DNA of 64,000 nt. Origin: Balanoglossus misakiensis. Taxonomy: Eukaryota > Animalia > Hemichordata. Shown piece after piece: positions 2,862 through 12,903 of this stretch. Location of the stretch: contig CM082595.2 of assembly GCA_040954595.2 (NCBI GenBank), forward strand, positions 395,690-459,689, read 5' to 3'. The notes beneath the pieces were generated by a model. It was not told where the DNA came from. It saw nothing but the letters and a program-made list of their open reading frames with translations, and did no database searches. Position numbers and translations under genes: made by a program. Every line of letters begins with the position of its first letter. Positions within the stretch are counted from its first letter, which is position 1.

Positions 2862-3925
2862 GGGATCCATGGGCCGTAACCGTGTTTTTCGGTTGTCCGA
2901 GAGTTTTTACAACTTAAAAGTTTTATTTTACACTCGCAATTTCGTAAGAAGGGGGATTACAATATAAAGTCGATAGTCGTACATTTTTAACAAATAAACG
3001 AAAATGTGGAAAATGTAAACGTGTTGGTAGCGCTAGAAACATAGCCGGACACCCCCAGATTGAACATAGAACAATCTCTTCCGCAAAGGACTCTGGGTTC
3101 AATGGCGGCCGTTCCGTGGCCCGATCCATGGACCGTGTTTTTCCGTTTTTCCGAGAGTTTTTACAACTTTAAAGTTTCATTTTACACTCGCTATTTCGTT
3201 AGATGGGGTGGGTTACAATATAAAGTCGATAGTCGTACATTTTTAACAAATAAACAAAAGTGAGGACAATGTAAACGTGTTGGGGGCGCTAGTAACATAG
3301 CCGGACACCCCCATTTTGAATAGAACAATCTCTTCCGCAAAGGACTCTGGGTTCAATGGCGGCCATTCCGTGGCCCGATCCATGGACCGTGTTTTTCGGG
3401 TTGTCCGAGAGTTTTCACAACTTTAAAGTTTCATTTTACACTCGCTATTTCGTTAGATGGGGTGGGTTACAATATAAAGTCGATAGTCGTACATTTTTAA
3501 CAAATAAACAAAAGTGAGGACAATGTAAACGTGTTGGGGGCGCTAGTAACATAGCCGGACACCCCCATTTTGAATAGAACAATCTCTTCCGCAAAGGACT
3601 CTGGGTTCAATGGCGGCCATTCCATGGCCCGATCCATGGACCGTGTTTTTCGGATTGTCCTAGAGTTTTTACAACTTAAAAGTTTTATTTTACATTTCGT
3701 TAGAAGGGGTGGGTTACAATATAAAGTCGATAGTCGTACATTTTTAACAAATAAACAAAAGTGAGGACAATGTAAACGTGTTGGTGGCGATAGTAGTACA
3801 GCGCCCTCTAGAGACGAGAGAAAGAGTAAGAGAGTCTGGGTAACCGAGACTATGGGATCCATGGCCCGATTCATGGGATCGTGTTTCTCGTCGTCCGAGA
3901 GTTGTGCAACTTACAAGTTTTATTT
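2862..3925 (-). repeat. Inverted tandem array of the same 254-bp unit (~3.7 copies) plus terminal module; right arm
   Basis: GTTTTTC...CCGAGAG recurs at about 2883, 3137, 3391 and 3645 (period 254) as the reverse complement of the left-arm unit. 3855-3925 is the reverse complement of 1160-1230. Confidence 0.93.
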
Positions 3926-8132: not shown

Positions 8133-8342
8133 CTTTGAAAGTGTCAAAGAAAGCATCACGATCAGATTTGTAGTCAAGGATGTAGGTCTCCGGAACAAAT
8201 TCCTCCATTTTGAGCAATTTGGGTTGCTTCGTCCCCTTCTTGACACGGTCCATCACTCTCTCGTATTCTCTCAGACTGTTAATCAAACCAACCTTGGTGG
8301 CCAGTAGACTACTATTTGGAATTCTGTTGACTAGTTGTTCAC
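8133..8342 (-). CDS. TTLL10: TTLL10-like exon (GEQLVNRIPNSSLLATKVGL...MEEFVPETY)
   Basis: TTTTCAG acceptor, GTGAGT donor, 210 nt, phase 1 to 1. Confidence 0.95.
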
Positions 8343-10935: not shown

Positions 10936-11054
10936 CTTCGCGAAATGACTGGTAGTTAATGTTGCATTTGAGTTCCACCCATTTCAGTTTGAAGTCATCA
11001 CACGCCTTATCTCGTATCCTACGCCATCCGCGAGCCAGTAATGGCGTTTCAATT
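10936..11054 (-). CDS. TTLL10: Mutually exclusive exon A (IETPLLARGWRRIRDKACDDFKLKWVELKCNINYQSFRE)
   Basis: TTTTTGTCAG acceptor, GTTGGT donor, 119 nt, phase 2 to 1. Confidence 0.88.
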
Positions 11055-11306
11055 CTGACAAAAACAAACAACCAATCAGGGTGAGTCCTCGGCTGTCAAT
11101 CACACAGAGTTAACCATTAGTAGAAAAGGGCGGGGGAGTTTATTGTGTCGCTGAAACAAAAGGTTGCCTGTTTCCCATTTTACGCTTTTTGGAGGGGTGT
11201 CAGGGTGAGGGAAGGACTGTGACATGAAAGTGTGCCTGTAATAAAATATGGGGGGGGAGCATGTGGCAGGAAGCAGCAACACACTGGCATGCACATTGGG
11301 ACATAC

Positions 11307-11425
11307 CTTCTCTGAAAGTGGAAAAGTCAATATGACTTTTAAGCTCCACCCATTTCAGCTTGTAGCCATGACTGTATCTGTCTGAAATGCGCTGCCAGCC
11401 TTTTGCTAAGAGAGGTTCTGCAACT
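11307..11425 (-). CDS. TTLL10: Mutually exclusive exon B (VAEPLLAKGWQRISDRYSHGYKLKWVELKSHIDFSTFRE)
   Basis: CTCAG acceptor after a long pyrimidine tract, GTATGT donor, 119 nt, phase 2 to 1; paralogous to exon A. Confidence 0.9.
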
Positions 11426-12707
11426 CTGAGATCAAGGAGCAAAAAAAGAAACAAAAACAATAACAGACTATGCAAGAACACACACTACAAGAAGCAAGAT
11501 TTCAATATTCTAGGCTTGCAAAGTGCATCACAGAAAGAAAGCAGCAACTATAACAACATAGAGAAGTCACAAACACACTGAATAAAGGAAATAAGATAAT
11601 ACTTTCAGAAACATCACCATAAAATGTGACTTTTCATGTTCTTTATGACCACAATGGTCCAATTTTCATTTTTCAGAAAGAGCAGAAAACGTACATGTAC
11701 TGTAGAAAGTGCATGTTACTGTGGATGCGATTAAGGATCTTTAGATGTGAGACTGTTTGAATCTGAATGTGAGAAAAAAGTCTCAGTCAATTCAAGCGGT
11801 TTATCTCATTTCCCAGTGGACAGGATAAGAGCAAAGCCACGGACAGAACAGATACAACGATGGTACAACGTGGAATGTATTATGTACACTGCATGCTTGG
11901 GGAGTTCAAGTGATTCATGGAGTAAACGTTTGAATGACATGGAAATTTTTTCACTCAGGAAATGGAATGAGTAAAACGATGGCCATGAAATGTTAATGTG
12001 TGTAATGGGAATACGTTAACAACCTTTTATCTTATCGAACACAGTGAAATGATATGGAAATATATAATGAGATTTGAAAAGTATAATATGAGGTTATGTA
12101 CATGCAATTAACCCTTTGCACTCTGAACCCCTGGTATGAGTATGGGAGAATTTTTGTGTTTTCCCAGAACTTGGGTACACAATAATATGTGTCTGGTTCT
12201 GTATTAACATTAAAGGGCCCTATCTGTAACTTCTGGCAATTTTTCAGAGATCACACCTTTAGTTTGCCAATAATTTGTGATAACTGGGAACTTAAATTGA
12301 CAATTTCTCGTCTGATATTTTGCAAAGTTGACCAGTGAGATGTACTGTAACTTTCACTGCAAATGGCAATTCACATGAGACTTAATACTTACAAGTACAT
12401 CTACATGTATGTCAAGTCATTTGGGGGATTGAGGGAGAATTACAGAGTTCTGTTTGTGTATGTACATCTTCTACAGAGCCATGGATAATTGCATGTACAT
12501 GTACCAGGTGTACATTGAATATTACAGACCGAGCATGGGATTTTTTTGCATGGGTGGGTGACCAAAACAAAAAAGTGGCCAAATAAAATTCCATGTTCAG
12601 TCTTTAATATTTGATTAGCTGCTTTCCAATATAGTTCATCATCTTCTCTTTATGATTTCAATATGCAGATCTGGTAGTTTATAAATAATCTTTCGAACAA
12701 GACTTAC

Positions 12708-12903
12708 AGCGATACACCATTGCCGCCACCAACGTAAAACGCTGGCCCCGATTCTTTGCTTCTCCCGCTTCTGACGGTACTGATATGATTGTTTGGTTGC
12801 TCATTTTTGTCACCTCCACTGGACGACCGTTTTCCACCCGGTGTTTGGTTACCTCTCCCTGAGTTTCCGCTGGGCGTGTTGTTGGAAGAACTTCTTTCAC
12901 CGC
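12708..12903 (-). CDS. TTLL10: TTLL10-like exon: Ser/Gly/Asn linker then GPAFYVGGGNGVS
   Basis: CTTACAG acceptor, GTAAGT donor, 196 nt, phase 1 to 2; GP.FY.GG.NG is the recalled start of the TTLL10 core. Confidence 0.88.

Follow-up and report, generated by a model that had tools for sequence, protein, structure and literature searches.

The TTLL10-like gene of the hemichordate Balanoglossus misakiensis very probably yields two full-length isoforms that differ by the choice between two neighboring exons. In the 64-kb window, that is, the whole stretch of DNA analyzed here, these exons, termed U (transcript-upstream) and D (transcript-downstream), are best read as old, diverged tandem duplicates of one exon of the TTL N-domain, encoding its first helix, two strands, and two loops, and as a mutually exclusive pair. 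The pair is genuine but, as duplicated exons with alternative splicing go, fairly ordinary and of a textbook type; at present it amounts to a well-supported fact of annotation in a single hemichordate lineage, implicit in RefSeq. Tandem duplication giving mutually exclusive exons is a well-described route to two versions of one module, and U and D offer a clean, conserved example in a tubulin-code enzyme; the isoform-level regulation of glycylases has been little explored.

Host gene and feature coordinates

By homology, the host gene of U and D is a TTLL10-like member of the tubulin-tyrosine-ligase family (PF03133), of the tubulin polyglycylase type. The Pfam TTL model matched three of ten translated window pieces, namely stop-to-stop frames downstream of the pair (E 1.2e-4, 1.7e-15, and 9.2e-15), and it matched the Ptychodera flava orthologue XP_070560556 (isoform X1) at E 3.7e-50. 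A protein search with the exon-D frame returned one match, 'protein polyglycylase TTLL10-like isoform X2 [Ptychodera flava]', at 95% over the exon. When the region around the alternative block was searched, 284 proteins were found at E<=1e-5; among the matches listed, from crinoids to mammals, the names are TTLL10 or polyglycylase, and it is by these names that TTLL10 is preferred over other TTLLs. The AlphaFold (AF2) model of the P. flava protein contains a confident TTL domain whose best PDB folds in Foldseek are TTLL6 and TTL (E about 1e-20); PDB sequence matches span the central and C domains only and leave the alternative block uncovered. TTLL10 is described as the enzyme elongating glycine chains on tubulin (PMC9513239, PMC11244163), and glycine-chain elongation is the putative activity of the protein encoded in the window.

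Aligning the P. flava X1 and X2 proteins to the window by tblastn gave a 12-exon match (Table 1), with a per-exon amino-acid identity of 61-97%. Residues 458-536 of P. flava fall on the match immediately upstream of the pair (12943-12707) and residues 576-645 on the downstream constitutive exon, at 94% identity, whereas the first ~80 residues found no place on the window in this tblastn search.

Table 1. Coordinates of the exon pair, its host gene, and other features of the window
Feature	Positions	Strand	Description
Exon U	11425-11307	minus	119 nt, transcript-upstream; 'B' of the sequence-only reading; P. flava X1/X3/X5 type
Exon D	11054-10936	minus	119 nt, transcript-downstream; 'A' of the sequence-only reading; P. 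flava X2/X4 type
Intron between U and D	11306-11055	minus	252 nt
Upstream constitutive exon	12903-12708	minus	start inferred from acceptor 'cttacag'; donor gtaagt at 12707
Downstream constitutive exon	8342-8133	minus	end inferred from donor AAAG/gtgagt
TTLL10-like gene extent	31095-6028	minus	tblastn of P. flava X1/X2 proteins, 12-exon match
Gene exon matches, 5' part	31095-30940, 20663-20445, 20032-19844, 19167-18538, 12943-12707, then U or D	minus	tblastn
Gene exon matches, 3' part	8343-8134, 7951-7733, 7622-7434, 7205-7023, 6819-6610, 6351-6028	minus	tblastn
Exons of NlpC/P60-like domain	20663-20445, 20032-19844	minus	N-terminal; P. flava X1 residues ~139-257
Acidic linking exon	19167-18538	minus	between NlpC/P60-like and TTL domains
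Tandem repeat block	1220-2080, 2133-2532, 2538-2764, 2879-3795		3' of the TTLL10-like gene

Structure of the exon pair

In the exon map obtained by tblastn, U and D are neighbors on one strand and lie between the same two constitutive exons. A sequence-only reading of this stretch had described two paralogous 119-nt exons of the same phase, open and with valid splice sites, 252 nt apart, in a TTLL10 gene. All of its numbers were confirmed, the junction coordinates that it proposed (12708, 11425, 11307, 11054, 10936, and 8342) match the splice sites as read here, and the gene assignment agrees with the Pfam TTL, P. flava TTLL10-like, and fold matches given above. Exon U is preceded by a long pyrimidine tract (86% Y) ending in ...ctcAG/ and followed by the donor AAG/gtatgt, which equals the consensus at eight of nine positions. 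The signals of exon D are weaker: the tract is 68% Y, the acceptor is ...gtcAG/ (preceding sequence ttgtttgtttttgtcAG), and the donor AAG/gttggt equals the consensus at seven of nine.

The two exons are also alike in phase, entering after two nucleotides of a codon and leaving after one. The upstream constitutive exon ends as ...GGT GTA TCG CT/gtaagt at 12708, where CT represents two nucleotides of a split codon, and its product, ...GPAFYVGGGNGVS(L), forms the first strand of the TTL N-domain. The downstream constitutive exon begins at 8342 as ag/GTGAACAA, i.e., ag/GT GAA CAA CTA GTC AAC; its first two nucleotides complete a Gly codon, and its product starts EQLVNRIPNSSLLATKVGL... Either U or D finishes the Leu codon, adds 39 codons, and opens the Gly codon that the 8342 exon ends. 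The translations are VAEPLLAKGWQRISDRYSHGYKLKWVELKSHIDFSTFRE for U and IETPLLARGWRRIRDKACDDFKLKWVELKCNINYQSFRE for D, and both contain the motif PLLA.GW.RI.D.....KLKWVELK..I....FREG that the earlier reading had singled out as shared. In each exon, only the coding frame is open, the other two frames holding two and two stops in U and six and one in D.

U and D are identical at 69 of 119 nucleotides and, by codon, at 21 of 39; 13 of these 21 identical residues are encoded by different codons, for example GAG/GAA and CTT/CTC. Their residue content differs, with 5 Arg and 2 Cys in D against 3 Arg, 2 His, and 4 Ser in U, in line with the proposed contrast between an exon A richer in Arg with two Cys and an exon B with His and Ser. 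In a tblastn search of the 64-kb window with one exon peptide, the other exon was recovered at E 8e-13, and the next best match reached only E 0.08-0.15. A repeat finder likewise reported a direct repeat (D1) with a 48-nt shared core, 77% identity, and 371-nt spacing. This repeat is confined to the 48 nt of exon core, and no likeness was detected between the intron flanks of U and D. Judged by these comparisons, the resemblance is beyond chance. A chance likeness or an assembly artefact is hardly credible as an explanation: it would have to account for the E value of 8e-13 between the exons, for copies that are 58% identical in DNA and hence represent no collapsed or duplicated assembly segment, and for the presence of both types in the independent genome annotation of P. 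flava. Possible third copies in the intron after D, at 9062-8970 ('FRKKWVEL') and 8599-8578 ('VELKCH'), scored within the shuffle and background range and were rejected; since shuffled sequence and other parts of the window score at least as well as these look-alikes, the cluster has two members.

For mutually exclusive exon clusters, the title of Pillmann et al. (2011) reportedly gives as criteria exon length, splice sites with reading-frame phase, and homology. U and D agree with one another in length, in splice sites and phase, and in homology, and they are adjacent, as in a homologous tandem mutually exclusive cluster.

Isoforms of Ptychodera flava

RefSeq lists TTLL10-like isoforms of P. 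flava in two pairs, X1/X2 (XP_070560556/57, 988 aa each) and X3/X4 (XP_070560558/59, 971 aa each). X1 and X2 show 15 differences, all in residues 539-574, and X3 and X4 differ likewise in residues 522-557, so that within both pairs the differences are confined to the 40-residue block of the U/D exon. Six proteins make up the cluster of the P. flava protein at 90% identity; 844 of their 989 alignment columns are invariant, and the sole variable stretch besides N-terminal length is the U/D block. Each model protein holds exactly one block type; X5 and a second gene model have the U-type block only. Because two versions occur in otherwise identical proteins, the NCBI annotation already treats the exons as alternatives. 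These isoforms are automated gene models; alternative RefSeq models normally rest on RNA alignments. The mutually exclusive reading originally advanced for the window is thereby supported, given that the RefSeq isoforms differ only by the two block versions; in B. misakiensis, both U and D are probably used.

The second P. flava gene model, XP_070562189.1 (864 aa), lies on the same 47-Mb contig as the first gene and is identical to it over the shared part, including a U-type block. Such a match suggests that a segment was duplicated very recently, or else that the assembly contains it twice.

Conservation, selection, and age of the duplication

A dN/dS-type comparison of the exons, which the sequence-only reading had called for, gave pN 0.30 and pS 0.93 (saturated) between U and D within the window, with identity at 23, 28, and 16 of 39 first, second, and third codon positions. 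A pN of 0.30 alongside saturated synonymous sites indicates that the duplication is old and that purifying selection has acted since. Across the two genomes, U agrees with the X1 block at 35 of 40 residues (87.5% by tblastn) and D matches the X2 block at 38 of 40 (95% by tblastn), whereas cross-type comparisons between the window and P. flava reach 23-24 of 40. In a tree of this 40-residue segment, the two U types group together with support of 99/99, and the two D types with 92/81. Owing to this type-for-type match across genomes, the duplication is placed before the split of B. misakiensis and P. flava. Both exons are as well conserved as the constitutive exons (61-97%), or better. Substitution patterns thus indicate that both copies are under purifying selection, and the suggestion of selection on both, first made from their codon differences, is strengthened by the gap between pN and pS and by the type-specific conservation.

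For a broader comparison, 217 proteins gave 197 gap-free segments and, from these, 136 distinct non-Ptychodera orthologue segments. Among the 136, 11 positions are at least 90% conserved; U keeps 10 of them and D all 11. Mean conservation is 0.51 over the 18 positions that distinguish U from D, compared with 0.78 over those at which they agree.

These data bear on the possibility that a single exon, probably U, is functional and that the other is a rarely spliced or decaying duplicate caught by gene predictors. The weaker polypyrimidine tract and donor of D would fit such a reading, as would the U type being the only one carried by the second P. flava model and by X5. However, D shows the higher conservation (38 of 40 residues against P. 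flava, 95% by tblastn), retains 11 of the 11 family-invariant positions, and is open in its coding frame only. Moreover, with synonymous sites saturated and pN at 0.30, a decaying copy of this age would not persist intact in two diverged genomes. We therefore regard a single functional exon as unlikely and retain two conserved, alternative exons as the preferred reading.

The arrangement may be confined to a small lineage, because in ten annotated clusters all members of each carry one and the same block version. These clusters, in which annotated isoforms only were compared, are from Asterias, Antedon, Acanthaster, Diadema, Branchiostoma lanceolatum, Lytechinus, Strongylocentrotus, Lingula, Mercenaria, and Ruditapes. 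U and D share 22 of 40 residues with each other, and either shares 17-29 of 40 with echinoderm orthologues. A tree grouping the four hemichordate segments is only 0.28 log-likelihood units worse and is not rejected (p-AU 0.48); 40 columns are too few to order events relative to echinoderms. No Saccoglossus protein appeared in the block region search or in a search for shorter proteins with the P. flava block plus flanks, and the 60 matches of the latter, all at <=60% identity, included no hemichordate transcript-derived protein fragments.

Predicted effect of the alternative block on the protein

The block corresponds to P. flava residues 537-576 and comprises most of the helix at 534-543, the strand at 547-549, a nine-residue loop, the strand at 559-561, and the loop that runs into the EGEQLVN strand. 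In the AF2 models of X1 and X2, the secondary structure of the block is identical and its pLDDT is 78-95, the equal confidence stemming largely from the shared alignment and being weak as evidence. The differences between U and D, at 18 of 40 positions, fall mostly at variable positions and cluster at the helix start, in the loop between strands 2 and 3 (RYSHGY vs KACDDF), and in the loop between strands 3 and 4 (SH.DFST vs CN.NYQS). We infer that neither isoform loses a residue that defines the fold or is invariant in the family. Because these residues are kept and the differences lie at mostly variable positions, a change in the surface of the N-domain is predicted, which may affect substrate or partner preference rather than catalysis. 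Should the block versions alter the preference for tubulin tails or partners, they would give natural access to what determines specificity beyond the active site.

Frame logic and proposed splicing mechanism

In silico, joining either U alone or D alone to the constitutive exons produced a frame reading on into the TTL core, whose conserved start is ...EGEQLVNRIPNSSLLATKVGL... The exon length of 119 nt equals 3n+2. As had been foreseen from this length, both or neither exon breaks the frame: the join of U and D shifts it and meets a stop 23 codons into D, and the join without U and D gives CTG TGA at the junction. Since the both-in and both-out joins hit stops, the ligase is encodable from single-inclusion mRNAs only. 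At the level of mRNA, this frame rule likely keeps the two exons exclusive, and products with both exons or with neither would presumably be cleared by nonsense-mediated decay (NMD). U is likely the default exon, and D would require activation in particular cells or stages; U is taken as the default because of its stronger polypyrimidine tract and donor, which is a guess based on sequence alone.

The early stops in the both-in and both-out products also fit a different role for the pair, namely a dosage switch in which regulated double inclusion or skipping yields NMD substrates that lower enzyme output, and in which the differing residues of U and D are of secondary importance. NMD-coupled unproductive splicing is a known regulatory mode (PMC6547761). 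For such a switch, however, a poison exon would suffice, and neither the type-specific amino-acid conservation of both copies nor the two full-length isoform models in P. flava would be explained. A dosage switch is consequently unlikely, and we continue with two protein isoforms made by mutually exclusive splicing.

Four mechanisms of mutual exclusion are under discussion (PMC4165533, PMC6071210). Steric hindrance between U and D is ruled out, since the intervening intron is 252 nt long. In mammals, splicing requires a minimum of 50-60 nt from donor to branch point. For C. elegans, the limit below which an intron is too short, and thus imposes steric exclusion, is given as ~40 nt (PMC4165533). 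Spliceosome incompatibility is unlikely, as all four sites look U2-type (gtaagt, gtatgt, gttggt, and a pyrimidine tract with AG). Inverted repeats in the U/D introns are only short (14-19 nt, 78-94% complementarity). The best inter-intron duplexes, at -36.3, -35.0, and -30.8 kcal/mol, compare with -37.3, -35.2, and -37.1 kcal/mol for the best of eight shuffles each. Docking/selector RNA pairings at U and D are not supported by these predicted duplexes, and the repeat and RNA-duplex searches of the locus introns found no regulatory element choosing U or D. The frame rule with NMD is the mechanism remaining and, by analogy, the likely one, its structural condition being present here. In C. elegans, 14 of 19 mutually exclusive clusters with exon lengths other than 3n undergo NMD-dependent removal of aberrant isoforms (PMC4165533).

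Other observations at the locus

Two upstream exons of the gene encode an N-terminal NlpC/P60-like domain, a papain-fold cysteine peptidase/amidase type, with the motifs 'DCCGL' and 'HVEIWAG'. Of 40 TTLL10 orthologues, 22 have a Pfam NLPC_P60 match at E<=0.05, with a best value of 2.5e-5; in the three of three that were inspected, the match falls below the curated cut-off. A literature search pairing NlpC P60 with glycylase or TTLL10 returned nothing. Tubulin deglycylases are still described as unidentified (PMC11244163); on that account, the fused NlpC/P60-like domain is a candidate for an editing or reversing role, which is a pure inference. The exon linking the NlpC/P60-like and TTL domains is large, acidic, and rich in Cys and Asp/Glu. 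It is 61% identical to its P. flava counterpart and predicted to be disordered, the model pLDDT being <50 over residues 288-519. Outside the gene, on its 3' side, the tandem repeat block consists of two arrays with a 254-nt period (3.4 and 3.6 copies; 98% and 93% matches) that flank 41/123-nt and 28-nt arrays.

Comparison with known systems

No published description was found of the U/D pair or the P. flava isoforms, nor of a comparable pair in any glycylase. The claim of the sequence-only reading that mutually exclusive splicing in a TTLL glycylase had gone unreported accordingly stands as far as the papers searched are concerned; its novelty is reduced by the P. flava isoform pair, which is already public in RefSeq, and by a bivalve TTLL10 pair that seems to involve a different exon.

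Clusters of the Dscam and 14-3-3 type resemble U and D in their origin by tandem exon duplication and in the inclusion of one exon per transcript. They employ docking/selector pairings (PMC6071210), whereas U and D are two exons only, with no predicted pairing above the shuffled level. The C. elegans clusters with non-3n exon lengths (PMC4165533) are likewise tandem, homologous, equal-length exons whose length is not a multiple of three. NMD removal is shown there and predicted from the frame here, and the gene and the phylum differ.

Within the same family, TTLL10-like protein pairs of the bivalves Mercenaria mercenaria (P0030/P0149) and Ruditapes philippinarum (P0031/P0156) also consist of equal-length isoforms with one contiguous differing block. 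These pairs differ at 17-18 positions, in a pattern conserved between the genera. Their block is distinct from that of U and D: it covers residues 415-444 of the ATP-grasp C-domain, around 'DTDMK..L.E.N.NP', and the N-domain block is present in a single version. The protein sequences suggest an independent second alternative module, which looks like mutually exclusive exons at another point of the TTLL10-like gene. A more speculative extension, which we consider rather doubtful, is that TTLL10 gained mutually exclusive modules repeatedly in invertebrates (the N-domain in ptychoderids and the catalytic 'L.E.N.NP' loop in venerid bivalves), with splicing tuning polyglycylase specificity by cell type. 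If true, the versions could distinguish, for example, sperm flagella from epithelial or larval cilia, or alpha- from beta-tubulin tails.

The nearest counterpart remains P. flava. Although its genome is a different one, with a per-exon identity of 61-97% to the window, and its RefSeq entries are automated models, X1/X2 and X3/X4 represent the same family, the same exon, and the same two types, and in the window U is orthologous to the X1 type and D to the X2 type.
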